DNA of 13,147 nt from Chthonomonadales bacterium (GTDB lineage Bacteria > Armatimonadota > Chthonomonadetes > Chthonomonadales > Chthonomonadaceae), in contig JBBQPO010000174.1 of NCBI GenBank assembly GCA_038217285.1, forward strand, positions 1 through 13,147. The letters are read 5' to 3'. Below, piece after piece: positions 1 to 13,030 of this stretch. Made by a program: the position numbers and the translations under genes. Numbering within the stretch: position 1 is the first letter of the stretch; the number at the start of each line of letters is the position of its first letter. The notes under the pieces are model-generated. The model saw only the letters and a program-made list of their open reading frames with translations. It searched no databases and was not told the DNA's origin.

Positions 1-48
1 GATATCCCCCTGCCTTAATTCTGCCTCTGACGAAACATCCAGATACAT
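1..48 (-). CDS. 5' end of a gene running off the window (MYLDVSSEAELRQGDI...); possibly PemK/MazF-like
   Basis: ATG at 48-46, 8 nt after the stop of 57..500; GAGGA at 65-61; 16 open codons to the edge. LRQGDI resembles the N-terminal '(R/Q)G(D/E)I' strand of PemK/MazF-type proteins. Not in the ORF track. Confidence 0.55.
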   Translation of the reverse strand, partial: MYLDVSSEAELRQGDI

Positions 49-56
49 TTTAGGAT

Positions 57-500
57 CTATTCCTCAATGATGTCCCAGCCAGTGGACGCAAGAATAGCAG
101 TGAGGCGCCTACTAGATATGACTTCCGCAGAATCCATGACATTGAAGAAAGCGGCTAAATCCAGCCCTTCAAATCCAGTAGACGTCTCAATCTGTTCTGA
201 GGATCCCACAGGAGGAGCAACGTCCGCACATGACTTTGTGAAGGGATTCAATCCATGCCTAGAGACACTTAGATCAAAGTCGGGATGCCTTTTTTTCACA
301 ATAGTCAGATATGCACTGGACAAATCACAGAAACTACTGTCCATGTTTCTGGCACATGCCTCAGAAGTCGCTCCAAGGAAGTACTTGCTATATGTCTGAT
401 GACCTGTCGTATTCCCGGGGATACCTGGTGCCGATAGAACTATTGCTGGCGAAACCGCTAAACAGGCGAAGTTAAACTGTGCTAGAGCTTTGTTACTCAT
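57..500 (-). CDS. hypothetical protein, 147 aa
   Basis: Its start overlaps the upstream stop (ATGAGTAA, 500-493), suggesting translational coupling. No family recognised. Confidence 0.6.
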   Translation of the reverse strand: MSNKALAQFNFACLAVSPAIVLSAPGIPGNTTGHQTYSKYFLGATSEACARNMDSSFCDLSSAYLTIVKKRHPDFDLSVSRHGLNPFTKSCADVAPPVGSSEQIETSTGFEGLDLAAFFNVMDSAEVISSRRLTAILASTGWDIIEE

Positions 501-1248
501 GAGGTTTTAGCTCCTTCAAAAGACTACGCGTCTTATCGGTTATGCACTCCTCAAAGAGGGCATAGATAGCATCATGGCTCGTTTCTAACAAGTCTTCCAG
601 ATGGTCTAAGCTCCAGTTTGGAGATAGGTTGACGGTATACCCTAGATCTAACACGAATCCAAATTCTTCAGCTGGTAGATCGAGATCTCGGGAAACTCCA
701 ACAGCTAAGAGATGATCATCTTGGACCAGCCACTGACACTGCACGGTGCAGACATTGTATGGTTTCCGAGAATCCGGCAACGTTGGATATATGGTTAACC
801 AGTCTGCTATCGGAACCGCAGAACTATCCAGACGCTTATCAGCAGGTATCCGTATTCGATTGATATAGCGCAGACCAAACTGCTTGAACACCGTGGGTTC
901 TACTACATTGGAGCATCTAGCCATGGCTTCCAACACAACTGGGCGAAACGTTTCCCATCCAGGATATGGCTTTACATGATTGATCGAAAATAAAAACGGA
1001 CTTACCTGTATCAGCGTTGTACCCGCAGAATTTCCAAAGCGCATTAAAATAGGAGGAACCTGTCGCGCCTCTGGTGGCTGCGGCATGAATCCCATATCCT
1101 GCGCAGTCTCAAAGCCTAAGTCGCGAATCTTGTCCAACACGAGACCGTACGCTGCAGGTGTCCAGGATGCTGGGACATCGAAGAATACCTGGCAGAAAAC
1201 CTCGCCGATGTAATCATTAGTGTATTTTTCGTGCGCGGCGTCTGTCAT
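493..1248 (-). CDS. TIGR04255-family protein (sporadically distributed, function unknown)
   Basis: 251 aa with the family pattern 'EVFCQVFF', 'LIQVSP..FSINHVKPYPGWETF', 'FGLRYINRI', 'FVLDL', 'H..IY.LFE.CIT'. Confidence 0.8.
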   Translation of the reverse strand: MTDAAHEKYTNDYIGEVFCQVFFDVPASWTPAAYGLVLDKIRDLGFETAQDMGFMPQPPEARQVPPILMRFGNSAGTTLIQVSPFLFSINHVKPYPGWETFRPVVLEAMARCSNVVEPTVFKQFGLRYINRIRIPADKRLDSSAVPIADWLTIYPTLPDSRKPYNVCTVQCQWLVQDDHLLAVGVSRDLDLPAEEFGFVLDLGYTVNLSPNWSLDHLEDLLETSHDAIYALFEECITDKTRSLLKELKPHE

Positions 1249-1539
1249 GAAATCTCATCTCGGCTTTGCCACTGCAAGTGACTTGGGTTATGTCCTGCAT
1301 CCTAAAGTATATTCTATGATACGCAGGGAAACCTATTAAGGTTTGAGAGCTTTATAATAGCACAGAAAGCCATCGAAGGCCATATAGCACGTCCGTCTAC
1401 GTGCAGGGATTCCCGGCTTCAAAACGGTAGTGCGCGCTACATGGATATGCTGTAGGGAAGAATGGGACAGAGATGCTTCCTGCTAAAACAATACCCTCCG
1501 TTAAGCGCAGGATATTTCAGAGCGCGAAACGATCACTTA

Positions 1540-1568
1540 ATTATACTCAAGCCAGCTCAATTTGTCAA
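1540..1568 (-). promoter_or_regulatory. consensus sigma70 promoter facing the TIGR04255 operon
   Basis: TTGACA (1568-1563), 17 nt, TATAAT (1545-1540); predicted TSS ~1533. Confidence 0.8.
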
Positions 1569-1782
1569 CCGACCTATTTTCCCTTATCCCCCTGTCAGTC
1601 CGCTCTTGTGCTCTGAAAGGAACTTTTGGACAGTCGCAGCAACCAACGCTCCATCTTGTTGCCCCGGATGAGATCAAAGCAACGGCGGTTACGAAGCTAC
1701 TGCTATTGCACGGCTCCTTAGCTGGTATATAAATGCCCAAAAAGCCCTGCCTGCTCCGAAGGGTTAAAATAGGTCGGAGACA
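1563..1782. repeat. imperfect inverted repeat pair, 1563-1585 and 1759-1782
   Basis: TGTCaaCCGACCTATTTT--CCCTT versus the reverse complement of the right copy, TGTCt-CCGACCTATTTTaaCCCTT; perfect 12-bp core (1569-1580 / 1766-1777). Confidence 0.6.
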
Positions 1783-1815: not shown

Positions 1816-3117
1816 TCAGGGGCGACGGGTGGAGCTTCGCTTCGCTTCGAGCAGACGCACCGCCGTCTCGCGGTCGGTGCAGAGGTCGTGGACGATCGGC
1901 TGACTCCAGCCCATCGCCTGCCACTCCAGCACCGAGCGAATCGCGTCCACTTTCGACGCGCCGCCAGCCACAACGACCACTTTCGGGACAAGGTACAACT
2001 GCTCGAAGGTGATCGAGAGCAGCCGCTCGTTGATGGCCTGGACATAGGCGTTCAGTTCCGCCAGCTTCGCGGGCGCCAGATGCTTGCGGGCCGCCAGCGT
2101 CACGAACAGTCGGTTACAAAGGTCACCAACCGCGCACGAGATCAGCTTGTTGCCGTTTCCGGAGATCTGCTCGATCAGTTCGATCATCTTGCCGAGTTCC
2201 GGCTGCAGGTTGCCCAGCATCGGCTCATGCAGACCCACGATGAAGCGGTGGCCGGATTTGGCCCGTACGCCCCCGATACCGACCAGCGCGAGGGTCGGCA
2301 CACAGACGTCGTCTTCCCCGTTCTGCACCATACCGTGGCCGACGCCCTGTTTCGATTTCTCTTCCCACACCTGCGGGGAGATCCAGCGGCCCGGCCCCTC
2401 GGCCAGCCACTCCGGGATCATCTCCGGCGACTTCACCGCAACGGGCAGACTGAGGCGGATCAACTCGGCATCCGGGAAGGCGCGCGCCAGCCAGGCACCG
2501 CTGATATCGGCGTCCATCGCACGGCGGGCGTCCGGGCTCTCCATGCTCCAGACTTCGGCGGCGATGTTCCCGTTCATGCTGACGACTTTGACGCCGCGCA
2601 CATTGCGCTTGTCGAAGATGTGCTTATTGAACAGGCTTTCGCAGGCGTAGAAAACGGCGCGTCCCGACGAGAGGGCGACAATCTCGTTCTGCCTGACGAT
2701 GGTATCCAGGTATTCGGAGCAGAGCTGACCGAGCGCCTGGTGCAGGCGGTCATCGGCAAGCGAGCTTTCCAAAGTCTCTTCATGCCCGGTGGCATCGGCG
2801 ACGATAGCCGACTGAAGTTCATAAGCCGCGACGAGTTCACGCTCGAGTGATTCAATACGCGGGGGTTTGAAAGGCGCGTTTTCATCGATATGGACGCGCA
2901 CAATGCCGGTATCCAGTGCAAAGCGATAGAGGCGTGAGATGGTGCTGGCGTCGATATGCGCCAGTTCCGGCTCGGATTTCGTCAACTGTTGCAGAATCTC
3001 TTTCTGCTCCAGGCGATCTACTAAGACCATTTTGGCGATACGCGCAGCAAGCCGGCGGCGTTCTCCCGGATCGAGCGCTGGCCTTCGACCGCGTCGTTTC
3101 TCTCCCGATAGGGTCAT
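1816..3117 (-). CDS. SorC/DeoR(LsrR)-family sugar-binding transcriptional regulator, 433 aa
   Basis: N-terminal HTH 'QKEI...STISRLYRFALDTGIVRVHI', 'LERELVAAYELQSAIV', 'ALSSGRAV', 'AVGDLCNRLF', 'VVVVAGGASKVDAIRSVL', 'LCTDRETA'. Start moved from 3315 to ATG 3117 (AAAGGA upstream; promoter at 3195-3224). Confidence 0.88.
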   Translation of the reverse strand: MTLSGEKRRGRRPALDPGERRRLAARIAKMVLVDRLEQKEILQQLTKSEPELAHIDASTISRLYRFALDTGIVRVHIDENAPFKPPRIESLERELVAAYELQSAIVADATGHEETLESSLADDRLHQALGQLCSEYLDTIVRQNEIVALSSGRAVFYACESLFNKHIFDKRNVRGVKVVSMNGNIAAEVWSMESPDARRAMDADISGAWLARAFPDAELIRLSLPVAVKSPEMIPEWLAEGPGRWISPQVWEEKSKQGVGHGMVQNGEDDVCVPTLALVGIGGVRAKSGHRFIVGLHEPMLGNLQPELGKMIELIEQISGNGNKLISCAVGDLCNRLFVTLAARKHLAPAKLAELNAYVQAINERLLSITFEQLYLVPKVVVVAGGASKVDAIRSVLEWQAMGWSQPIVHDLCTDRETAVRLLEAKRSSTRRP

Positions 3118-3194
3118 TGGGTAGTATTTCCTTTCATTCACGCGGTTCCACGCTATTGAAGCCACAGTAATAGTATAGCCCACGCTTACAATAA

Positions 3195-3224
3195 ATTCTA
3201 CCTGTTTCATACGTGGAATGTCAA
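3195..3224 (-). promoter_or_regulatory. sigma70 promoter of the regulator
   Basis: TTGACA (3224-3219), 18 nt, TAGAAT (3200-3195). Confidence 0.6.
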
Positions 3225-3395
3225 ATTCTTGTTGTACAAGCAATCCGAGCATAGGCTTGCAAATATCTGCGCCTCCGAAAGGGTGTTTCTGCGGTAGGAG
3301 TTGCCACCGATGCAAATTCCGCTTACATAAATCTGTATTATCCGTTCCGTTGAGTCTTTTGCAGAAAAAACTTTTTCAATCTATCGCTATATCTA

Positions 3396-3424
3396 TTGAC
3401 AGCACGTGCGTAATGGGTTATAAT
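3396..3424 (+). promoter_or_regulatory. consensus sigma70 promoter
   Basis: TTGACA (3396-3401), 17 nt, TATAAT (3419-3424); predicted TSS ~3431. Confidence 0.85.
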
Positions 3425-3430
3425 AAGGGC

Positions 3431-3535
3431 GAAGGTATCCTTCTTTCTCGTCCTCAATTGTTTTGTGTTCGTCAGGCAGACTTCGGTGTGCTTGCGTCCA
3501 CGCCCGGCTTCAATGGCGAAGTCGGGCATTTTTTT
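3431..3535 (+). ncRNA. candidate ~105-nt small RNA (or attenuated leader)
   Basis: Bounded by a perfect promoter and an intrinsic terminator. Contains a 5' hairpin GAAGG-tat-CCTTC, a pyrimidine-rich linker and a cUUCGg-capped hairpin (3473-3494). No RBS-led ORF inside. Confidence 0.6.
3502..3535 (+). terminator. rho-independent terminator
   Basis: GCCCGGCTTC-aatggc-GAAGTCGGGC (10 bp, one G-U) followed by ATTTTTTT. Confidence 0.85.
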
Positions 3536-3602
3536 GTCAGGAAATAGGAGGCACCGAGGAAGAAAGGATTCGAGCAGGAAAAAAGGCAGAGAGGGGACGC
3601 GC

Positions 3603-3630
3603 TTTGTCGGTCTTAGATATGTCGTATAAT
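3603..3630 (+). promoter_or_regulatory. probable proximal promoter of the catabolic operon
   Basis: TATAAT at 3625-3630, 37 nt upstream of the ATG; the -35 is weak (TTTGTC); GGAGG RBS follows. Confidence 0.45.
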
Positions 3631-3667
3631 CTTTCTGGTATACGGCGAGCAGCGGAGGGGGTATTAG

Positions 3668-4597
3668 ATGCATTATAGGAAGTTGGGGAGGACGGGGCTG
3701 GAGGTTTCGGTTCTGGGGTTCGGTGGGTCGCCGCTGGGGGGCGTGTTTGGGGAGGTGGACGCGAGCGAGTGTGTGCGTACCGTGCATGCGGCCATCGATG
3801 CGGGGATCAACTACTTCGATGTCGCGCCTTTTTATGGCCTTACGCGGGCCGAGAGCATGCTGGGCCGGTGCCTCGCCGGGATTCCACGGGAGAAGTATCT
3901 GCTTTCGACCAAGGTCGGGCGGTATGGGGCGGATGATTTCGATTTTTCGGCGGCGCGGGTTACGCGGAGTGTTGAGGAGAGTTTGGAGCGGCTTGGGCTG
4001 GAAACGATCGATCTGCTGCTCTGCCATGACATCGAGTATGCTTCCCTGGATCAGATCGTTGAGGAGACGCTGCCGGCGCTGCGTCAAATTCAGGCGGCGG
4101 GCAAAGTCCGGTTTCTGGGCGTGAGCGGTTTGCCGTTGCAGATTTTTCGCACCGTACTGGATCGCGCCGATCTGGACTTTATTCTATCCTACTGCCACTA
4201 TAGCCTGAACGACACCTCCCTGGAGAGCCTGTTGCCGAGGCTGCGGGAGCGCGGGGTCGGAGTCATCAATGCCTCCGCGCTCGGCATGGGGCTGCTGACC
4301 GACAGGCCGCTCCCGGAGTGGCATCCCGCTCCGCCGGAGCTTCGGAAGGCTGCGGCGGAGGCGGCGGACTACTGTCGGGCGCAGGGAGTCGAGCTTGCCC
4401 ACCTCGGCCTTCAGTTCGCGCTGGCCCATCCGGAGATCGCTACGACGCTCGTCGGCATCGCGGATCAGGCGACTCTGGAGAAGAACCTGGCGGCGCTTAA
4501 ATTCGCTCCTGATCCCGAACTGCTGCGAAACGTGCAGGAGATTCTGCGTCCTGTCCATAACCTGATGTGGCCCACCGGCAGACCGGAGAATAGTTGA
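3668..4597 (+). CDS. aldo/keto reductase, L-galactose dehydrogenase-like
   Basis: 'YRKLGRTGLEVSVLGFGGSPLGGVFG', catalytic 'YFDVAPFYG', 'STKVGRYG', 'CHDIEY', 'ILSYCHY', 'GVINAS.LGMGLLT..LPEWHPA', as in the L-galactose dehydrogenase subgroup. Confidence 0.88.
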   Translation: MHYRKLGRTGLEVSVLGFGGSPLGGVFGEVDASECVRTVHAAIDAGINYFDVAPFYGLTRAESMLGRCLAGIPREKYLLSTKVGRYGADDFDFSAARVTRSVEESLERLGLETIDLLLCHDIEYASLDQIVEETLPALRQIQAAGKVRFLGVSGLPLQIFRTVLDRADLDFILSYCHYSLNDTSLESLLPRLRERGVGVINASALGMGLLTDRPLPEWHPAPPELRKAAAEAADYCRAQGVELAHLGLQFALAHPEIATTLVGIADQATLEKNLAALKFAPDPELLRNVQEILRPVHNLMWPTGRPENS

Positions 4598-4630
4598 GGG
4601 TTGGCTGCCGGGAACAGGAAGAGGAACAGC

Positions 4631-5749
4631 ATGACGGGAATGCCGGAGACGATTTTACAGTTCGGAAGCGGGCGGTTCCTGCGGGGATTCGTGGACCTGT
4701 TTGCGCATCAGGCCAACGAGACAGGACAGCCTGCCGGACGTATCGTCATGGTGCAGTCCACGGAGGGCGAGCGGGCGCGGCAGATGAACGCCAACGGCTG
4801 TCGTTACCATGTCCTGATCCGTGGGTTGCAGAACGGAGTTACGATAGACGAGACGACCGAGGTGCAGAGCGTGTCCCGCGCGCTCATGGCGCAGGCGGAG
4901 TGGGAGGAGGTCGCGGATGTGGCCTGTTCGCCGGACCTGCGCATGGTCGTCTCCAACACCACCGAGACGGGCCTGACGCTGCTGCCGCAGGACGACGACC
5001 GCGCGGGCAACAGCCCGCTCTCCTTTCCGGCCCGGCTCACGGAGCTGCTCAACCTGCGCTACGAGGCGGGTCTGCCCGGCCTGACAATACTTCCCTGCGA
5101 GCTGGTCGAGAACAACGCCGATACCCTGCTGGCGCTGGCGCTTGAGCAGGCCCGACGCTGGGGATGGGAAGGCCGCTTCACCTACTGGCTGGAGACCGAG
5201 TGCCGCTGGCTCAATACACTGGTGGATCGGATCGTGACGGAGCGGCCGGAGGGGCATCCGCTGCTGGAGAGTGACCCGCTGCTGACGGTGGCGGAGCCAT
5301 TCGCTCTCTGGGCCATCGAGGGCTCCGGGCAGGAGCCGCGTGTCTTCGAACACCCTTCCATTCTGCGGTCGCTGGATGTGGGCCGCTACTGGCTGCGGAA
5401 GGTGCGTATTCTCAACGGCGCCCATACCGCGCTCGTCACGCGCGCCCTGCCGCTGGGCTATGTCACGGTACGGGAGGCGATGGCCGATCCTCAGATCCGC
5501 GAATGGCTGCACGAGCTGCTCTTTACCGAGATTGTTCCCACGCTGGCGGAGCGTGTGGAGGAGGGCGAGACGTTCGCACATCAGACACTCGAGCGGTTCG
5601 CCAATCCGTTTTTGAACCATCAACTGCGTGACATCGCCGTAAACCAGGCGCAAAAGCTCGCCATTCGGCTCCGGCCCACGGCGGAGGAGTACACGGCGCA
5701 GTTCGGCAAGCCGCCTCGCCTGCTGACCGAAATTCTGGCCGGGGCCTGA
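4631..5749 (+). CDS. uxaB: tagaturonate reductase / altronate oxidoreductase (mannitol dehydrogenase family), short form
   Basis: 'ILQFGSGRFLRGFVD', 'VVSNTTETG', 'SFPARLT', 'ILPCELVENNAD', 'NTLVDRIV', 'AEPFALWAIE', 'RKVRILNGAHT', 'ERFANPFL.H'. ATG 4631 (GAGGA RBS) preferred to TTG 4601. Confidence 0.85.
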   Translation: MTGMPETILQFGSGRFLRGFVDLFAHQANETGQPAGRIVMVQSTEGERARQMNANGCRYHVLIRGLQNGVTIDETTEVQSVSRALMAQAEWEEVADVACSPDLRMVVSNTTETGLTLLPQDDDRAGNSPLSFPARLTELLNLRYEAGLPGLTILPCELVENNADTLLALALEQARRWGWEGRFTYWLETECRWLNTLVDRIVTERPEGHPLLESDPLLTVAEPFALWAIEGSGQEPRVFEHPSILRSLDVGRYWLRKVRILNGAHTALVTRALPLGYVTVREAMADPQIREWLHELLFTEIVPTLAERVEEGETFAHQTLERFANPFLNHQLRDIAVNQAQKLAIRLRPTAEEYTAQFGKPPRLLTEILAGA

Positions 5750-5761
5750 AAGTCCATCACC

Positions 5762-6778
5762 ATGCAAACAATCGTTCTCGAAGAGCCGGGGCGTTTTATC
5801 CTGACCGATACGCCGGAGCCGGAGGCGCCCGGCCCCGACGAAGCCCTCGTGCGAGTGCGGCGCGTCGGCATCTGCGGCACCGACCTGCATGCCTATCGCG
5901 GCAAACAGCCCTTCTTCACCTATCCCCGCATTCTGGGGCATGAGCTGGGCGTCGAGATCGTGGCGCTCGGCTCCTCCAGCGAGACCTTAAAGGTGGGAGA
6001 CCGGTGTGCGGTGGAGCCCTATCTGAACTGTGGGGAGTGCATCGCCTGCCGCAAGGGCAAAACCAACTGCTGCGCGCGCCTCAAGGTGCTCGGCGTCCAT
6101 ATCGACGGCGGGATGCGCAGCTTCGTGCGGGTGCCCATGAACAAACTCCACAAGTCGGACACGCTGTCGCTGGAGCAGCTCGCGCTGGTGGAGACGCTTG
6201 GGATCGGGGCGCATGCGGTGGACCGGGCCGGGATCGAACCAGGGGAGTTCGCCCTTGTCATCGGAACCGGGCCGATCGGCCTCTCCGTCATTCAGTTCGC
6301 CCAGGCGGCAGGGGCGCGGGTGATTGCGCTGGATACCAACACCCATCGCCTGACGTTCGCCCAGGAGCGCATGGGCATCGAACATATCGTTGCTGCACAG
6401 GAAGGCCCTCTGGCGGCTATCGAAACCATCACCGGCGGCGATCTGCCGACGGTAGTCTTCGATGCCACCGGCAACGCCGACTCGATGCAGGGCGCGTTTC
6501 AGTATGTGGCTCCCGGCGGACGTCTGGTCTTCGTCGGGCTGTTTCTCGGCGATGTCCGCTTCTACGATCCGGACTTTCATCGCAAAGAGATCACGCTCCT
6601 CGCGACCCGCAACTCCACCGGCAGAGATTTCCAGCGTATCCTCACCCTGCTGGAGGCGGGCAAAGTAGATACCGATCCCTGGATCACGCACCGTGCCGAA
6701 GCCGCGGAGATGACCGCCCATTTTCCAAGCTGGCTGGAGCCTGAGAACCGTGTCCTGAAAGCCGTCGTCACCTTCTGA
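5762..6778 (+). CDS. zinc-dependent dehydrogenase, L-galactonate 5-dehydrogenase (LgoD/YjjN)-like
   Basis: 'VGICGTDLHAY.GKQPFFTYPRILGHE', structural Zn motif 'CGECIACRKGKTNCC', 'LKVLGVHIDGGM', 'GTGPIG', 'DATGN', 'DPDFHRKEITLLATRN'. Confidence 0.85.
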   Translation: MQTIVLEEPGRFILTDTPEPEAPGPDEALVRVRRVGICGTDLHAYRGKQPFFTYPRILGHELGVEIVALGSSSETLKVGDRCAVEPYLNCGECIACRKGKTNCCARLKVLGVHIDGGMRSFVRVPMNKLHKSDTLSLEQLALVETLGIGAHAVDRAGIEPGEFALVIGTGPIGLSVIQFAQAAGARVIALDTNTHRLTFAQERMGIEHIVAAQEGPLAAIETITGGDLPTVVFDATGNADSMQGAFQYVAPGGRLVFVGLFLGDVRFYDPDFHRKEITLLATRNSTGRDFQRILTLLEAGKVDTDPWITHRAEAAEMTAHFPSWLEPENRVLKAVVTF

Positions 6779-7262: not shown

Positions 7263-7967
7263 TCAACGCAGCGCGGAGTTGATGAGAAGCTCGCTTAAGT
7301 TGGCGAGGCCCAGTGGAACACTGGAGACCTTGCGCTTGATACGGGCAAGCGCATTATCCACCGATTTGGTTTTACATTTGAGTTCTGAAGCAATTTCGCG
7401 GTAGGATTTCCCGATCTGGTATCCCGCCAGCACATTCCACTCGAAATCCGAAAGTACCTGTTGCAGCATCTCGTGGAGAACCCGGGTGTCTTCGCTTTGG
7501 ATGACGAGTTCTTCGGGATCGAGAGTATCGGTAGAGGGAATAATGTCGGAGAGGTTCCAATCGGGGCCGGAGTCCTCGGAAGGACTTTCCAACGAGAGTG
7601 ACGTATTGAGAGGCATCTGTTTCTGGCGTGTCGCGGTCTTGATGGCGGTGATGATATGCCGCTGGATACAGACTTTGGCGAACGCCGGAAAAGAGATAGC
7701 CTTGTCGCAGCGAAAGTCGACGATCGCCTGCCAGAGACCGATCATTCCGACCTGAAGCAGGTCTTCTTTCTCGGCTCCTACCAGGAAGTAGGACTTTACT
7801 TTCGTGCGAACGAGGTTACGATATTTGTACAGCAGGAATTCTGAGGCGGCCTCATCACCCCGCTGCGCTCTATCAACGATCTCCCGGTCGGCCATATCGG
7901 CAAACTTGATGTGACTGGGGGGGAGATGCTGCTGCAATTCACTGATCACCCTGTTCCCTCGATCCAT
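7263..7967 (-). CDS. sigH: RNA polymerase sigma factor, SigH (Spo0H) type
   Basis: 'KYRNLVRTKVKSYFLVGAEKEDLLQVGMIGLWQAIVDF', 'CIQRHIITAIKTATRQKQMPLN', 'DPEELVI', 'LSDFEWNVL', 'GKSYREIA...KSVDNALARIKRK' match the Bacillus/Clostridium SigH signature. Alternative start GTG 7949. Confidence 0.9.
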   Translation of the reverse strand: MDRGNRVISELQQHLPPSHIKFADMADREIVDRAQRGDEAASEFLLYKYRNLVRTKVKSYFLVGAEKEDLLQVGMIGLWQAIVDFRCDKAISFPAFAKVCIQRHIITAIKTATRQKQMPLNTSLSLESPSEDSGPDWNLSDIIPSTDTLDPEELVIQSEDTRVLHEMLQQVLSDFEWNVLAGYQIGKSYREIASELKCKTKSVDNALARIKRKVSSVPLGLANLSELLINSALR

Positions 7968-8122: not shown

Positions 8123-8298
8123 CCTATCGCGAAAAATTCTCGAAAATTCTGCCCTGCGCGGCAGGAATCGGGGCAAAAGACCTTAAAGAGGGCTTTCCAA
8201 CGGTAAAATCGAGGCGCTTCCTCCTTTACGCGTTAAGCAGGCGAGCGCAAAAATAGGATTCGAGGAGGCTGCCAGAGGGTAGCCTTGACCGCAAAGGA

Positions 8299-8309
8299 TG
8301 TGGTATAAC
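8299..8309 (+). promoter_or_regulatory. extended -10 promoter for the NlpC/P60 gene
   Basis: TGTG-G-TATAAC; the nearby TTGACC (8285-8290) is only 13 nt away, so it is not a properly spaced -35. Confidence 0.45.
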
Positions 8310-8392
8310 GACTCGTGTGCCTGGTTTCCTTTCTGTTTTTGCTCCTGACGGTGATAGAGAAAGGTGAGAAAACATGCAAAGGAACTACCCAT

Positions 8393-9085
8393 TTGAACTT
8401 TTTTCGACCTTATGTCGCTCCCTGCCTTGCGGCCATCTGTCTGCTCGTTGCCACCTCTGCCTTCGTTCGCGCCGATCCTCCTGCCGGTGAACCTCCCGTT
8501 CGCGAGCGAGTCCAGCCCGAATCTACTTCCCCTGCAAAACCGTCGAAGTCTAGCTCTGCGGCGCACTCGAAACAGACTCCACTCCTGAATCGCTATTCGA
8601 CACGGGGCGAGGCGCTGGCTCGTACCGCCCTGGCCTACCGTGGCGCGCCCTACCGCTTCGGCGGTCGGTCGGCGCAGACCGGCTTCGACTGCTCCGGACT
8701 GGTACAGACCGTCTGCGCGAAGTGGGGGCTCTATGTCCCGCGCGCGGCGCACGCCCAGTACAATGCCGGAACCCCCGTCCCGTCCAACAGCCTGCAGCCC
8801 GGCGATCTGGTCTTCTTCAAGAACACCTACAAGCGGGGCCTGTCCCATGTCGGCATCTATATCGGAGATCGCAAGTTTCTGCACGCCGCCGGAGTGCGCT
8901 TTGGAGTCATGGTCAGCAGCCTGGACGACGCCTATCATCGCAATCACTATGTCGGTGCACGCCGTCTCAACCTCTCCAAGCTGCCCCCCGTCCCTGGAGA
9001 AGAGGGCGCGCCGCAGCGCGTCATCCTCGACGACGGCAACGGCGATACAACCGCCGCTCAGCCGACAGACCTCTCGACCCACTAG
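8393..9085 (+). CDS. secreted NlpC/P60 (C40) cell-wall peptidase
   Basis: 'YRGAPYRFGG...GFDCSGLV' (catalytic Cys), 'LQPGDLVFF', 'SHVGIYIG', 'FLHA'. Signal peptide and Pro/Ser linker follow TTG 8393 (AAAGGA at 8378-8383); the ORF-track start is 8315. Confidence 0.9.
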   Translation: MNFFRPYVAPCLAAICLLVATSAFVRADPPAGEPPVRERVQPESTSPAKPSKSSSAAHSKQTPLLNRYSTRGEALARTALAYRGAPYRFGGRSAQTGFDCSGLVQTVCAKWGLYVPRAAHAQYNAGTPVPSNSLQPGDLVFFKNTYKRGLSHVGIYIGDRKFLHAAGVRFGVMVSSLDDAYHRNHYVGARRLNLSKLPPVPGEEGAPQRVILDDGNGDTTAAQPTDLSTH

Positions 9086-9141
9086 GAACCGCAATCCGGT
9101 ACGTCCCAATCTCAGGAGTTCGATTCCTTTCATTGATCTTC

Positions 9142-9412: not shown

Positions 9413-10507
9413 ATGCGCACCTCTTTTGCGATTTACTGCCTTGTGTTGTCGTTATTCTGCTTACTCGGCATTTCCGGTCAGGCCCAAACGCAGGTGCGGA
9501 AGACCCAGAAAATGACCGAGGCAGAGACGAGAGTCGTGGAAGACTGCCTCGACATCATCCGCGGCTGCCAGATGACGGATGGAGCCTTTCTGATCGCCAA
9601 TAACGGGAGGACGCCCTCTGCGCAGGTGTGGATCGCGCCCTACTTCGTCAACTACGGGATGTTGGCCTTGCTCGCTGCAAACGATGCCAAAAAGAGCCCT
9701 GCCGATGTCGCGCGTGTCGGCAAGTGGCTGGAGTGGTGTGCACAGCATCAGGAAGCAGCAGGGTTCTGGTGCGACTACGTGGGAACCATCGCGGAGTACC
9801 AGAGCAACGGGAAGGTGGACGCGTATGACAGTTCGGCAGCCATGTTCCTGATGGTTGTCGAAAGTTATCGGCGGGCGGGAGGCAAGGTGTCGGACAAGAT
9901 GCGGGAGGCAGCAAAAAGATCGCTGAAGTGTATTCAGACGGTCACCGACTCCAGGGACAAATTGACTTGGGCGAAGCCGGACTATCAGGTGAAATTCCTG
10001 ATGGACAATATCGAGGTGTATGCCGGCCTGGCATACGCGCAGCAATTCTTTACGGCAAAGCATGACAGGGCCGCCGCGAAAGCCGCCGGGAACCAGAAGG
10101 CGGAGGTCGGGAAGGGCCTGAAAACCTACTGGGAGGCGAAGCAGAAGAAGCGATTTGCATGGGCCTTCTATCCCAACCGCACTTTCGAGGGTGGGATGAA
10201 AGATCTCTACCCACACGGGCTTGCCCAACTGTTCGGCGTCAGCTTCGTGGTCGGCGATCCCGCTCCCTTTGCGGAGGTGGTGAAGACCTTTGAGCCTCTG
10301 AACACCGCAGAAGGCGTCGGCGCGGAGCGCTACCTGATCGCGGCATCCCGCCTGGGCGGCGCGGACGTTGGGAAGTGGCGAACGCAGGCAGTCAAAGCGG
10401 CGGAGGGGTTCACCCCCCAGAACGTATACCTCTTCCGACCAGGTCTGGTGGTTCTGGGTTTGTTGAAGGGAGCCGACTGGATGCCGAGTCTCGCGGGCAG
10501 GAACTGA
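9413..10507 (+). CDS. secreted hypothetical protein, probable (alpha/alpha)6-barrel / six-hairpin glycosidase-like fold
   Basis: AGGAG RBS; Sec-type signal peptide; helical segments with acidic motifs 'DAYDSSAAMFL' and 'FLMDNIEVYAGL'. The fold is inferred. Confidence 0.7.
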   Translation: MRTSFAIYCLVLSLFCLLGISGQAQTQVRKTQKMTEAETRVVEDCLDIIRGCQMTDGAFLIANNGRTPSAQVWIAPYFVNYGMLALLAANDAKKSPADVARVGKWLEWCAQHQEAAGFWCDYVGTIAEYQSNGKVDAYDSSAAMFLMVVESYRRAGGKVSDKMREAAKRSLKCIQTVTDSRDKLTWAKPDYQVKFLMDNIEVYAGLAYAQQFFTAKHDRAAAKAAGNQKAEVGKGLKTYWEAKQKKRFAWAFYPNRTFEGGMKDLYPHGLAQLFGVSFVVGDPAPFAEVVKTFEPLNTAEGVGAERYLIAASRLGGADVGKWRTQAVKAAEGFTPQNVYLFRPGLVVLGLLKGADWMPSLAGRN

Positions 10508-10635: not shown

Positions 10636-11652
10636 ATGTCCTGTCTTCGAAGTCGATTCATGGCCCTGATCACGCTGAGTGTGATCGCCCTCTTTGTGAC
10701 GACCCCTCTCCGAGGGATCTCGCAAGGAGAAGTAACGTTCTCCAATGTCCCCAATCACTTTCCGACGCAGCCGGACAACCAGCCGATCGGACCGGCACAC
10801 GGCGGGGTGGCGGTCGATCGCGCCGGCAATATCTACGTCAGCACCGACACGCCGCGTGGTATCCTGGTCTTCGCACCGGACGGCAAATATCTCCGCAATT
10901 TTGGGCCGACGCAGATTCACGGCCTCTACCTGAGACGTGAGCGCGATGGCGAATACCTCTACGCCGCCCGCCCCAACTTCCACGAAGTCCTCAAGATCAA
11001 GACCGATGGAACCCCGGCCTGGACGATGGGATACCCGACCGAGTCCGGCATCTACACGAAAGCCGAGGAGTTCAACCCGACGAACATCGTGGCCCTCGCC
11101 GATGGCACGATCTTTGTCGCGGACGGATACGGCAAGAACTACATCCACAAGTACGACAGCACCCGCAAGTACCTAAAGTCGTTTGGCGGGCCGGGGGGCA
11201 ACCCGGCGGAGGACGGAAAGTTTAACCGCTGCCATGGCCTGGCAGTCGATACGCGCGGTCCCAAACCGCTTCTCATCGTCTGCAACCGTGAGAGCGGCCG
11301 TGTGGAGCAGTGGGATACGGACGGCAACCTGGTGAAGGTGCTGCAGCGCAACTTGCGTATGCCGGCGACAGCCTATGTTGCGGGCGACTACGTCGCTATC
11401 GGGGAGCTGCAAGGCCGCGTCACGATCCTCGGAAAGGACAACAGCATCGTCGCGCAGCTCGGCGACAATCCCAACGTAGCCCAGCGCGCCAACTATGGCC
11501 TGCCTCCGGCGCAGTGGACCGAGGGCATCTGCAACAATCCGCATGGCATCGCCATCGACAAAGCCGGCAACGTGATCGTCTCGGAATGGAGTCAGTTCGG
11601 ACGGCTACACATGTTCGCTCGCAAGCGCGTACCGACAAAGAGGTCGCAGTAG
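10636..11652 (+). CDS. secreted NHL-repeat beta-propeller protein (peptidylamidoglycolate lyase-like)
   Basis: GAGGT RBS; signal-like N-terminus; repeats 'HGGVAVDRAGNIYV', 'PTNIVALADGTIFVADGYG', 'FNRCHGLAVD', 'PHGIAIDKAGNVIVSEW'. Confidence 0.85.
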   Translation: MSCLRSRFMALITLSVIALFVTTPLRGISQGEVTFSNVPNHFPTQPDNQPIGPAHGGVAVDRAGNIYVSTDTPRGILVFAPDGKYLRNFGPTQIHGLYLRRERDGEYLYAARPNFHEVLKIKTDGTPAWTMGYPTESGIYTKAEEFNPTNIVALADGTIFVADGYGKNYIHKYDSTRKYLKSFGGPGGNPAEDGKFNRCHGLAVDTRGPKPLLIVCNRESGRVEQWDTDGNLVKVLQRNLRMPATAYVAGDYVAIGELQGRVTILGKDNSIVAQLGDNPNVAQRANYGLPPAQWTEGICNNPHGIAIDKAGNVIVSEWSQFGRLHMFARKRVPTKRSQ

Positions 11653-11666
11653 AGAGGAGCCGCATT

Positions 11667-12935
11667 ATGAGTGATTTTCCAACGATCATCCCCGAGGGAG
11701 TAATGGCCAGACCCGGCAGACCCGGTGCCAACGACCGTATCGTGGTCGCCAGCATCGGGATCGGCGGCATGGGCCAGAGCCATGTGCCCGCCGATGTCGT
11801 GGCGCTGTGCGATGTGGACCGCACCCGTCTGAATGCCGTCGCGCAGAAAGTTGTCGCCAATGAAAAGCGGACGACGCCGACCCCCCCAGACCTCTACACC
11901 GACTATCGACAACTCCTGGAGCGTAAGGACATCGACGCGGTCACCATTGGCGCTCCGGACCACTGGCATGCGCTTATGACCGTCCACGCCTGTCAGGCAG
12001 GCAAGCATGTCTACTCTGAAAAGCCCACCTGCAACACACTTCAGGAGGGAAGGGCGATGGTCGATGCCGCTCGCCAGTACGACCGCGCCGTGCAGATCGG
12101 CGCGCAGGGGCGCTCCAATGCCAACGCCCACGCCGCCTGCCAGTATGTGCGGAACGGAATGCTCGGGCAGGTGAAGCGCGTGGAGATCTGGCATCCCGAC
12201 AACCCCACCACGACCGATATGGCCGAGCCTATGCCGGTCCCGCCCGATCTCGACTGGGATCTCTGGCTTGGTCCGGCCCACGATCGCCCCTTCCACTCCC
12301 GCTACCATCCCGGCAACTTCCGCTGGTTCATGGATCTGGGCGGCGGACAGATCAAAGATCGCGGCAACCATGCCCTCAGCATGGTCTCCTGGCTGATGAA
12401 TAACGACGGCTATCAGGGCCTGGTTACGGTCGAGGCAACCGGCGATCCCCAACCGACCGGCATGTATACGACCCCGCGCAACCTGGTGGTGAACTGGACG
12501 TTCCAGAATCCGGACTGGACCCTGACCTGGCGTCAAGGCGAGGTGCCTGATTCGCACGCCCCCTGGGGGGCCACCTACTATGGCGACCGCGACAGCCTGA
12601 TCGTTCGGGCGGGCGATGGCGGCTGCGACACAGAGGAGAAGGCGATGCAGTATCAACCGCCCGCGGGCGGGGAGGTCTATCTCTATCCGGCTGCGCCCGG
12701 CACAGAGGCGACGGATAGACATCGTCAGGACTGGTACGACTGCATCCGTACCGGTCGCCTGCCGGTGATGGACGTCGCCATAGGGCATGCCACCTGTTCG
12801 CTCTGTATCCTTGGCAACCTGGCCTACACCCTGGGTCGGAAGCTGACCTACGACATGGCGGCCGAGCGCTTCGTCGGCGACGAGGAGGCCAACGGGCATA
12901 TCGCGGCGCACTACCGCGCGCCCTGGAGCCTCTGA
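11667..12935 (+). CDS. Gfo/Idh/MocA-family NAD(P)-dependent oxidoreductase
   Basis: 'IGIGGMG', 'ALCDVD', 'DIDAVTIGAPDHWHA', 'GKHVYSEKP', 'LDWDLWLGPA', 'GGGQIKDRGNH', C-terminal 'YRAPWSL'. Start ATG 11667 with GAGGAG RBS. Confidence 0.92.
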   Translation: MSDFPTIIPEGVMARPGRPGANDRIVVASIGIGGMGQSHVPADVVALCDVDRTRLNAVAQKVVANEKRTTPTPPDLYTDYRQLLERKDIDAVTIGAPDHWHALMTVHACQAGKHVYSEKPTCNTLQEGRAMVDAARQYDRAVQIGAQGRSNANAHAACQYVRNGMLGQVKRVEIWHPDNPTTTDMAEPMPVPPDLDWDLWLGPAHDRPFHSRYHPGNFRWFMDLGGGQIKDRGNHALSMVSWLMNNDGYQGLVTVEATGDPQPTGMYTTPRNLVVNWTFQNPDWTLTWRQGEVPDSHAPWGATYYGDRDSLIVRAGDGGCDTEEKAMQYQPPAGGEVYLYPAAPGTEATDRHRQDWYDCIRTGRLPVMDVAIGHATCSLCILGNLAYTLGRKLTYDMAAERFVGDEEANGHIAAHYRAPWSL

Positions 12936-13030
12936 TCTTTGCTCGTTTGCCGTGCGCAGTAGCGTGTACTGTTCGGGATCGACCATGAGGCTGTCAATAG
13001 ACATGCCGCATGACTGGAGGCTTTGTCGTG

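Follow-up and report, generated by a model that had tools for sequence, protein, structure and literature searches.

The left end of the window (the whole 13,147-nt stretch that was analysed, contig JBBQPO010000174.1 of a Chthonomonadales bacterium) carries three tandem ORFs, all on the minus strand, inside a segment of low GC content. The following features were distinguished.

1..48, minus strand: gene 3, first 16 codons only; putative toxin/effector with a 'QGD' family N-terminus
57..500, minus strand: gene 2, orphan ORF of 147 aa with an ATG start; putative antitoxin/adaptor
493..1248, minus strand: gene 1, TIGR04255 family, 251 aa with an ATG start
1..1750, no strand: low-GC segment holding the module, 46–49 % GC vs 58–67 % in most of the remaining window
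1249..1533, minus strand: putative 285-nt leader from the promoter-like site to gene 1, with an RNA fold
1540..1568, minus strand: promoter-like site, TTGACA-17-TATAAT (12/12), ~290 nt upstream of the TIGR04255 start

The end of gene 1 and the start of gene 2 overlap by 8 nt (ATGAGTAA), an AAGGAG motif, a strong Shine–Dalgarno sequence, is located 10 nt 5' of the gene 2 start, and the ATG of gene 3, at position 48, lies 8 nt past the TAG of gene 2. This confirmed the three coupled minus-strand ORFs, an overlap followed by a short spacer, that had been noted in the preliminary description. The visible peptide of gene 3 is MYLDVSSEAELRQGDI, and its frame exits at the window end. A genome contig scan found a sole other copy of this DNA, a second public contig of 3783 nt (designated L002 below) that terminates at the identical base. 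The GC content of the two complete module genes was 0.476 and 0.468, vs 0.595–0.622 in neighbouring genes. The promoter-like site is a consensus match only, and four such sites were found in the region vs 2.7 expected. The putative leader folds at −90.8 kcal/mol (z = −3.2), a stability equalled by 0/200 shuffles, and contains no Rfam family.

The TIGR04255 protein and its small neighbour

The gene 1 product is a member of the TIGR04255 family by a full-length sequence match, scoring 98.4 bits against the NCBIfam model (cut-off 30), with residues 8–244 aligned to positions 1–251 of 252. Relatives were found in 1727 representative clusters at E≤1e-3, the only close one (P0002, 67 % identity) being encoded on a 44.8-kb contig. 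Pfam, PADLOC and PHROG searches of the window protein gave no match, a Pfam search with 93 members at E≤1 gave nothing recurrent, and the family profile found a single weak match among PDB sequences (E 0.004). An AF2 model built from a 93-sequence alignment (pLDDT 91.4) was compared with known structures by Foldseek, which returned TBP/AdoMetDC/McsB-like matches only, all PDB matches having TM<0.4. For the TBPs the Foldseek probability was 0.96–0.98, yet the TM was 0.24–0.35 with an rmsd of ~11 Å. Against viral structures the best match had an E-value of 3.3e-8, and TBP/TFIID-like structures were among the others. The protein therefore models as a tandem TBP-like alpha/beta fold, a prediction that displaces the SecB-like fold raised for it earlier as a question; SecB was absent from the PDB matches listed (to rank 50), as were RnlA, LsoA and RNase H3. 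Several polar and aromatic residues are near-invariant in the family (E16, C19, Q81, Y95, W98, R127, Y128, N130, H225 and E233), and the central strands of the model carry conserved Arg, Asn, Tyr and Trp. The near-invariant residues suggest a conserved ligand or partner bound by TIGR04255.

Chance alone would seldom leave the 147-codon frame of gene 2 open: this particular frame was open in 5/20000 shuffles, and at least 147 open codons occurred in any of the six frames in 80/20000. Its codon-position statistics are weak (GC1/2/3 = 0.48/0.49/0.43) and a 110-aa ORF lies antisense to it. With 19 Ser, 17 Ala and 9 Gly among 147 residues, the earlier label 'Ser/Ala/Gly-rich' holds. Homologue searches with the protein returned only itself, and no family was found in Pfam, NCBIfam, PADLOC or PHROG. 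No Atlas look-alike was present (best 0.87), hhalign gave no similarity to the middle proteins of type C loci (see below) and BLASTP gave nothing against a 147-aa Thermus neighbour. The C-terminus is net acidic (+3 in the last 10 residues), a value reached by 47/1923 background ORFs and by 4/10 type C middle proteins. It is this acidic C-terminus, together with position, and these only, that mark the protein as a putative antitoxin.

Conserved cassettes in related loci

We surveyed 81 TIGR04255 loci, comprising 80 from GTDB genomes, among them the second contig with the window's own DNA (L002), and one from a Thermus plasmid. Loci were gathered with a single peptide pattern, [RQ]xGLRYINRI, which gave 169, and the 80 best of these were retained; because one pattern and only these best loci were used, the sample is biased. 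The next ORF starts between −8 and +6 nt from the TIGR04255 stop in 70 of the 79 loci with a chained ORF, and 74 of the 77 loci that extend 600 nt or more downstream have a recognizable last gene. Last genes were of four types across these 77 loci, namely HEPN (46), QGD MazF-fold (11, the type C cassettes), PIN/VapC (9) and DUF7689 (8). Local HMMs built from the same surveyed loci alone identified 46 HEPN, 11 QGD, 8 DUF7689 and 7 PIN genes, and Pfam PIN was detected in two of the four leftover loci. All of these matches share the strand of TIGR04255 and lie 216–599 nt past its stop; elsewhere in the 12-kb loci there was a single further match, to a fragment of a QGD gene in L010, a frameshifted locus. 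Pfam recognized the expected domain in representatives of three types (HEPN 3/3, PIN 2/2, DUF7689 1/1), the PIN proteins also matching NCBIfam VapC.

Conserved gene order around TIGR04255, which the preliminary description had presupposed, was thus present in the great majority of the 81 loci, and a toxin-like last gene of HEPN, PIN/VapC, MazF-fold or DUF7689 type was borne out in the related loci. These results support a conserved, tightly coupled unit of three genes built on TIGR04255. In the window and in most relatives, TIGR04255 comes first in an operon-like unit, then a middle gene that varies between loci and then a last gene of toxin-like type; the 147-aa protein is position-equivalent to that middle gene. 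As in type II toxin–antitoxin operons, small genes lie adjacent to one another (here with an overlap and an 8-nt spacing), and one is toxin-like, as judged from the last genes of the relatives.

The clusters into which middle genes fall correspond strictly to the type of the last gene. In type A middle proteins, a variable N-terminal part is joined to a conserved domain of ~110 aa at the C-terminal end, whilst middle genes are hypervariable in every type C locus. Pfam and NCBIfam identified no HTH, RHH, AbrB or other DNA-binding domain in the middle proteins, and the type A middle family found nothing in the PDB below E 0.5. Of the last genes, those of HEPN cassettes encode a conserved RNxxDY motif, with any Rx4-6H present in 24/41 at inconsistent positions; as RNxxDY stands in place of a positionally conserved Rx4-6H, their nuclease competence is uncertain. 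DUF7689 is no known RNase. QGD genes were split in 3/11 type C loci (L010, L062 and L077).

Mapping cassette types onto a quick tree of TIGR04255 showed clustering, with 12 changes vs 32.5 when labels were shuffled and 0/200 shuffles as low. Two PIN loci (L004 and L076) nest within the MazF-fold clade, and the window protein forms a very long branch (3.03) outside that clade. On this tree the cassettes appear to co-diversify with TIGR04255, with toxin-type swaps.

The distribution of the module is sporadic, spanning many bacterial phyla and one archaeon. On the Thermus brockianus plasmid pTB1 it adjoins pAgo, methylase, VapC and Cas6 genes, and a P2-like Ralstonia phage displays an identical three-ORF layout. 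A flank survey, which scanned 105 of 143 flanking proteins, found that in ~16/58 surveyed loci the gene directly next to the module was of restriction–modification (RM), toxin–antitoxin (TA), defence or phage type. Several modules lie within RM operons; the majority of immediate neighbours belong to the housekeeping class. The defence-like character proposed at the outset found no counterpart among known defence models, as both window proteins matched 0 families in PADLOC-DB v2.0.0 at E≤1, and 14 proteins of four related loci gave marginal PADLOC matches only (E 0.002–0.02).

The third gene and the QGD family

When the gene 3 fragment was aligned to the N-terminus of the QGD family, L, Q, G and D were invariant in 7/7 sequences with the same spacing, giving a shared motif of W/Y-x-x-V...L-x-Q-G-D-[ILF]. 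Among 3767 N-terminal 16-mers scored with the QGD HMM, the gene 3 peptide ranked second, behind a true member, whilst it ranked 171, 744 and 423 with the HEPN, DUF7689 and PIN HMMs, respectively. Its position is also the same as that of the last gene in the 11 type C loci. Comparison of these sequences places gene 3 in a large unnamed family of ~178-aa proteins, an assignment made on an HMM score of 5.5 bits and on position, from 16 residues. A PIN/VapC identity, considered for its 'MYLD' start, was rejected on the same rankings (423 vs 2).

With 8000 candidates scored, the QGD family numbers at least 7424 proteins at the E≤1e-3 level. Of 120 listed members, QGD[ILFVM] is present in 119, Q[SAT]C[DN] in 117 and PYRE in 118. 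Further features include invariant or near-invariant cysteines (C62, C75; C25), a near-invariant H77, a PPYREHLSQAFARF helix and a PPYRE...RF motif, over a full length of ~178 aa. An AF2 model was made for the QGD protein of a relative, locus L015, rather than for the window gene (pLDDT 90.5). All of its PDB matches listed by Foldseek (50 ranks) were of MazF/Kid/PemK type, with a best E-value of 1.8e-4, a probability of ~1.0 and a target-normalized TM of 0.47–0.66. The family is therefore predicted, from this relative, to adopt a MazF/PemK-like fold (SH3-like barrel). At the sequence level such a relationship was not evident: three full-length QGD relatives gave no Pfam family, PemK included, at E≤0.01, a profile of 77 QGD sequences found 0 matches among PDB sequences at E≤10, and hhalign against Escherichia coli MazF gave a probability of 0.1. 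The earlier guess of a PemK/MazF protein, made from 'RQGDI', thus stands at the level of family and, through the L015 model, of fold, but not at that of sequence. Searches of plasmid and phage collections for the QGD family by tblastn gave no match. Complex predictions for the L015 middle protein with its QGD and TIGR04255 partners, run without controls, scored 0.00 vs a mark of 0.32 and count as evidence neither way.

A toxin–antitoxin-like reading and its alternatives

Taken together, these data make it probable that the region represents the 5' part, two complete genes and the beginning of the third, of a toxin–antitoxin-like conflict module whose three genes are translationally coupled and were acquired horizontally. 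Of the toxin/antitoxin/accessory arrangement first proposed for this locus, the conserved unit, the toxin-like last genes and the MazF-like fold stand, whereas the SecB-like fold does not, and the MazF link finds no support in sequence. The product of the last gene would be a growth-inhibiting effector, probably RNA-targeting, and the fast-evolving 147-aa protein its cognate neutraliser; in related loci it is the C-terminal part of the middle protein that co-varies with toxin type. TIGR04255 may serve as a conserved accessory platform. It would bind a ligand or partner that is itself conserved, and would either govern the neutraliser's stability or its release, or act as the sensor of the trigger. 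As such a platform it would allow HEPN, PIN, MazF-fold and DUF7689 toxins to be plugged into the same control module. The biological role may be addiction/stabilization or abortive-infection defence. A broader form of this proposal, in which TIGR04255, with some 1700 representative clusters from bacteria, archaea, plasmids and phages, is a hitherto unrecognized, universal TBP-like sensor/adaptor platform that couples hypervariable adaptors or antitoxins and interchangeable effectors, among them a new Cys/His-bearing MazF-fold family, to one common trigger, is speculative, and we hold it to be doubtful.

The cassette of the window belongs to a widespread and apparently undescribed family of such modules, in which one toxin-like last gene can take the place of another. 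TIGR04255 proteins form a large family without assigned function, and the QGD family is larger still and nameless; here the two are joined in conserved three-gene cassettes whose last gene is swapped among recognized toxin folds, including, in the QGD proteins, a predicted new and enlarged MazF-like fold. No paper on TIGR04255 (CHP04255, IPR026349) or DUF7689 was found in full texts outside subscription journals and supplements, and neither a paper describing the three-gene module nor a PADLOC model of it was found. Should a general role for TIGR04255 as control or sensor subunit be borne out, it would be a second conserved accessory serving many toxin families, after that of SecB-type toxin–antitoxin–chaperone (TAC) systems, and a new entry for defence-system catalogues. 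The platform reading, if true, would establish a class of tripartite abortive-infection/TA systems that is both new and modular, and would give a function to two large families.

Several known systems share part of this design. TAC systems combine HigBA, MqsRA or HicAB pairs with a SecB-like chaperone, the chaperone gene being last and the neutraliser carrying a variable extension. The modules described here are likewise three-gene TA-like operons in which one conserved accessory protein serves different toxin and antitoxin families and the putative neutraliser has a variable extension. They differ in that the accessory is a predicted tandem TBP-like protein encoded by the first gene rather than a SecB-like protein encoded by the last, and in that their toxins are HEPN, PIN, MazF-fold or DUF7689 proteins. 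MazE, the antitoxin of MazEF, has an acidic C-terminus. The modules with a QGD protein resemble MazEF/PemIK (Kid–Kis) in the predicted MazF/Kid-like fold of the last-gene family, in the '(R/Q)GD[ILF]' motif leading into the first long strand and in the acidic C-terminus of the upstream partner, the 147-aa protein. In contrast, QGD proteins are ~178 vs ~110 aa long, have conserved Cys/His residues and the PPYREHLSQAFARF helix and lack a Pfam PemK match, whilst AbrB and RHH domains are absent from the middle protein and an extra conserved third gene is present. The commonest cassette type, whose last gene encodes a small (~125 aa) Pfam HEPN protein, resembles HEPN–MNT systems. The partner of this protein, however, is no nucleotidyltransferase but a ~180-aa middle family without Pfam, NCBIfam or PDB match; TIGR04255 is added, and the motif is RNxxDY, not Rx4-6H. 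TAC systems are treated in PMC9098466.

The RnlA–RnlB and LsoA–LsoB systems offer the nearest alternative. RnlA–RnlB is an anti-phage system in which TBP-like domains accompany an RNase toxin and a small inhibitor protein; in RnlA, TBP1 and TBP2 precede the HEPN domain and TBP1 is needed for RNA binding and activity (PMC8266594, in excerpt). Fusions of TBP-like domains to the RNase LS HEPN have also been described (PMC3710099, in excerpt). The same combination of parts is present in our modules, by model fold only. TIGR04255 could accordingly be, rather than a regulator of the antitoxin, a nucleic-acid (RNA) binding or targeting subunit that works in trans and without which the toxin would not recognize its substrate, with the middle protein an RnlB-like inhibitor. 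The two modelled TBP-like repeats with their high Foldseek probabilities, the conserved Arg, Asn, Tyr and Trp of the central strands and the RNase-type domains (HEPN, PIN, MazF-fold) that end most cassettes are all consistent with this. Against it, the TM to TBPs is low, RnlA, LsoA and RNase H3 do not appear among the matches listed to rank 50, and DUF7689 cassettes are not obviously RNases. RnlA also differs in having its TBP-like domains fused to HEPN and its toxin gene before the antitoxin gene, whereas the present TBP-like protein is separate, is encoded first and accompanies non-HEPN effectors too. We regard this split arrangement as unlikely.

Separate operon autoregulators also occur in three-gene systems, such as omega in omega–epsilon–zeta and PaaR in PaaR–PaaA–ParE. 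TIGR04255 might similarly be a transcriptional autoregulator, providing the DNA binding that is missing from the middle proteins, for which Pfam and NCBIfam show no HTH, RHH or AbrB domain. In keeping with this, its gene comes first in the operon and its predicted fold is TBP-like. However, a protein of 250 aa whose surface residues stay near-invariant while the operons around it differ widely is more readily explained by a conserved ligand than by operators that vary, and an autoregulator is, in our estimate, quite improbable.

Slightly less probable still is that the window module is decayed or incomplete, its 147-aa frame non-functional or its gene 3 truncated or disrupted, so that only TIGR04255 functions. 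The orphan status, weak coding statistics and antisense ORF of gene 2 would fit decay, as would the break of two assemblies at the same base inside gene 3 and the split QGD genes of some type C loci. Conversely, the 147-aa frame is rarely open by chance, the Shine–Dalgarno-type motif and coupled starts are intact, hypervariable middle genes are the rule in type C loci, and a contig end is an assembly event and no evidence of a broken gene.

The toxin–antitoxin-like module also accounts better for the wider survey than a housekeeping RNA-metabolism or stress complex, or a TIGR04255 gene adjoining an ordinary two-gene TA pair by chance, a very improbable alternative: many immediate neighbours are housekeeping genes and PADLOC gave no match, but adjacency with overlapping starts is kept across phyla, the distribution is sporadic and extends to a plasmid and a phage, toxin types are swapped, some modules lie inside RM operons, and the module in the window occupies a low-GC island.

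Anatomy of the module and its partial third gene

Three tightly spaced minus-strand ORFs were present at the left end of the window, as the preliminary description had reported. Their best-supported interpretation is a tripartite toxin-antitoxin-like conflict module, in which the MazF-fold protein encoded by the last gene would be the effector, the hypervariable middle protein its cognate neutraliser and TIGR04255 a conserved accessory common to different toxin cassettes. Tripartite systems of this kind are already known; what appears new here is the accessory family (TIGR04255) and the predicted MazF-fold effector family.

Features at the left end of the window
493..1248, minus strand: first gene, ORF for the TIGR04255 protein (251 aa)
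57..500, minus strand: second (middle) gene, ORF of 147 aa
48..46, minus strand: ATG of the third gene, a partial ORF running off the window end
1568..1540, minus strand: promoter-like site TTGACA-17-TATAAT, a sequence match to the perfect sigma-70 consensus

The 147-aa ORF had AAGGAG upstream of its ATG and shared its first 8 nt with the first gene (ATGAGTAA), and the third-gene ATG lay 8 nt past the TAG of that ORF, reading MYLDVSSEAELRQGDI up to the window end. GC content was 46-49% in segment 1-1750 compared with 58-67% in most of the window, so the module looks recently acquired. The promoter site preceded the TIGR04255 start codon by approximately 290 nt, and the intervening 285-nt leader, which matched no Rfam family, folded better than 200 of 200 shuffles (z = -3.2).

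A genome contig search located the same DNA in a 3783-nt contig (L002) of a MAG labelled Chthonomonadales. The two contigs were assembled independently and stop at the identical base (3783 in L002, 1 in the window), 48 nt into the third gene, which is therefore readable for its first 16 codons only. This shared end suggests an assembly-graph branch, due to a repeat or strain variation, just past the conserved QGD motif. The 16 residues fit the N-terminus of a last-gene family of approximately 178 aa, named QGD after this motif, following the pattern Y..V.....L.QGD[ILF] with equal spacing; L, Q, G and D were invariant in seven of seven aligned sequences. When the N-terminal 16-mers of all ORFs in the related loci (3767 in total) were scored against an HMM of six full-length QGD members, the fragment came second, behind a genuine member in locus L026. 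As its score of 5.5 bits is small in absolute terms, rank and position are both needed to support the assignment. The fragment ranked 171st, 744th and 423rd against the HEPN, DUF7689 and PIN models, respectively, and a PIN identity was rejected on this ground.

Cassette types across TIGR04255 loci

Of 169 confirmed genome matches to the peptide pattern [RQ]xGLRYINRI, we surveyed the loci of the best 80, a sample thereby biased towards this motif, and added one Thermus plasmid locus. The coupled organization proposed from the window recurred widely: the distance from the TIGR04255 stop to the next same-strand start was between -8 and +6 nt in 70 of 79 loci, most commonly a 4-nt overlap, and toxin-like last genes were found in most of the 77 loci whose downstream sequence extended to 600 nt or more. 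These 77 were typed by all-against-all clustering and local HMMs, and the representatives tested against Pfam and NCBIfam bore out the family names.

Cassette types by last gene (77 loci)
Type A: middle gene, ~180-aa family; last gene, ~125-aa HEPN; 46 loci (a further locus had the middle gene alone)
Type B: middle gene, ~150-aa family; last gene, DUF7689; 8 loci
Type C: middle gene divergent, 113-131 aa; last gene, ~178-aa family with QGD[ILF], QSCD and PPYRE motifs; 11 loci
Type D: middle gene divergent, ~120 aa; last gene, PIN/VapC; 7 loci
No type by HMM: 4 loci

Two loci without an HMM type (L004 and L076) had Pfam PIN last genes, raising the PIN total to nine, whilst the other two (L050 and L079) had a further cassette in common. 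The TIGR04255 gene of L079 (JBBRKX010000070.1, 1605-3414) is the second in the same Chthonomonadales-labelled MAG, distant from the first at 25% identity, and is followed by coupled ORFs of 190 and 159 aa. Last-gene families were confined to the downstream slot of the 12-kb loci, the exception being one QGD fragment in a frameshifted locus (L010). The P2-like Ralstonia phage YO139_2 (L082, 194-2061), found independently, carried TIGR04255 followed by a 165-aa ORF (4-nt overlap) and a 146-aa ORF, neither matching a Pfam family; the module thus also occurs in a phage-encoded form, with a further distinct cassette.

Cassette types clustered on a quick maximum-likelihood tree of TIGR04255, requiring 12 changes versus 32.5 with shuffled labels (0 of 200 shuffles as low), and type B was monophyletic. 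The PIN loci L004 and L076 sat inside the MazF-fold clade, indicating that effectors have been exchanged. The window's own TIGR04255 had a long branch (3.03) and was unplaced. Overall, the module was distributed across many bacterial phyla and an archaeon.

Predicted effectors, neutralisers and accessory protein

Of 8000 candidates scored, at least 7424 belonged to the QGD family at E<=1e-3; all were annotated 'hypothetical' and none had a Pfam domain. The family had no match in PADLOC, NCBIfam, PDB sequences, or plasmid or phage collections. A confident AF2 model of the QGD protein from type C locus L015 (77-sequence alignment, pLDDT 90.5) was compared with the PDB using Foldseek, and all matches listed among the best 50 ranks were MazF, Kid, PemK, MoxT or YdcE toxins (probability about 1.0, best E 1.8e-4, target-normalised TM 0.47-0.66). 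The initial PemK/MazF proposal thus held at the level of predicted fold but not of sequence, where full-length relatives had no Pfam PemK match and hhalign against E. coli MazF gave a probability of 0.1. Given this negative sequence result, a length some 65 residues greater than MazF, a set of Cys and His positions that are invariant or nearly so (C25, C62, C75, H77) and an Arg-rich C-terminal helix, we regard it as a predicted MazF-fold family distinct from the MazF family proper. In three of 11 type C loci (L010, L062, L077) the QGD gene was frameshifted or lay in two separate ORFs, which could reflect toxin decay or MAG assembly error.

Type A HEPN proteins (e.g. L009, 7307-7684) conserved L-R-x-x-R-N-x-x-D-Y (RNxxDY) without a positionally conserved Rx4-6H; any Rx4-6H was present in 24 of 41, at scattered positions. 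Type B DUF7689 proteins (e.g. L042, 7184-7624) displayed a conserved YNCIAWAAGDD motif including a conserved Cys, which may point to a thiol-dependent enzyme instead of an RNase; we know of no activity for DUF7689. To describe all effectors as RNases would therefore be an overstatement.

Middle proteins were the fastest-evolving part of the module. In type A, the N-terminal part could not be aligned and the C-terminal domain, about 110 aa long, was conserved; type C proteins were barely alignable. Middle-gene clusters matched last-gene type one-to-one, the behaviour expected of a cognate neutraliser; that the last genes are toxic and the middle proteins neutralise them is an inference. In the window, a 147-codon open frame arose by chance in 5 of 20000 shuffles in its own frame and 80 of 20000 in any frame; codon-position statistics were uninformative. 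The 147-aa protein had no relative in homologue searches or an Atlas look-alike search and no similarity to type C middle proteins detectable by hhalign, having in common with them only its place in the module and a C-terminus that is net acidic (+3 across the final 10 residues, a value attained in 47 of 1923 background ORFs and in four of 10 type C middle proteins).

The window's first protein belongs to NCBIfam TIGR04255, which it matched over its full length (98.4 bits, cut-off 30); it had no match in Pfam, PADLOC or PHROG. With 1727 representative clusters at E<=1e-3 the family is large, and nearly every one of these proteins stands alone, with a length of about 245-255 aa. The AF2 model (pLDDT 91.4) consisted of two beta-alpha-beta repeats and was not SecB-like, as had initially been considered; the Foldseek PDB matches listed down to rank 50 were only TBP, AdoMetDC and McsB-like proteins, at low TM. 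A viral library yielded one unnamed relative and weaker matches including TBP/TFIID-like proteins. Near-invariant polar and aromatic residues argue, from sequence, for a conserved ligand or partner, and TIGR04255 may act as a controller or sensor, may target RNA or may regulate its own operon. RnlA is described as TBP1-TBP2-HEPN, with TBP1 required for RNA binding (PMC8266594); its TBP-like domains work with a toxin RNase, a possible precedent for TIGR04255 that we treat as a lead only.

No component of the module had a convincing match in PADLOC-DB v2.0.0, a comparison predating newer defence catalogues, and a full-text literature search, excluding supplements and subscription journals, returned no paper on TIGR04255 or DUF7689. 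The module is not described in the portions of two surveys dealing with three-component systems (PMC2701414 and PMC3710099).

Genomic context and other genes of the window

Our flank scan covered 105 of 143 immediate flanking ORFs at 58 loci. Neighbours were often housekeeping genes (LeuRS, pyruvate kinase, PriA, DnaG, RNase III), and a restriction-modification (RM), toxin-antitoxin, defence or phage gene adjoined in about 16 of the 58. The module lay between an N6_N4 methylase and a ResIII helicase in L009 and L023, directly upstream of a ResIII helicase in L025, and between HsdR-like and HsdM/S (fusion) genes in L042 and L043; placement inside RM operons in L063 and L069 was judged by ORF layout only. 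This placement within RM operons is reminiscent of nuclease genes lodged in type I RM loci. The Thermus plasmid copy was surrounded by pAgo, methylase, VapC and Cas6 genes.

In the window, a sugar/polyol catabolism cluster (1816-6778) adjoins the low-GC island.

Other genes of the window
1816-3315, minus strand: SorC/DeoR-type regulator with sugar-binding domain
3668-4597: aldo-keto reductase
4601-5749: tagaturonate-reductase-like enzyme of the mannitol dehydrogenase family (353 bits, just below the cut-off of 359)
5762-6778: Zn-dependent dehydrogenase
7263-7967, minus strand: sigma factor, scoring above the cut-off for NCBIfam sporulation sigma factor SigH (243 bits, cut-off 208)
10636-11652: 338-aa ORF with NHL/beta-propeller repeats

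Long ORFs at 8183-9133 (minus), 9413-10507 (plus) and 11592-13004 (minus), of 316, 364 and 470 aa, matched no Pfam family at E<=0.01. The SigH-scoring gene lies in DNA filed under a Chthonomonadales (Armatimonadota) MAG, and represents either a SigH-like factor outside Bacillota or wrong binning or labelling.
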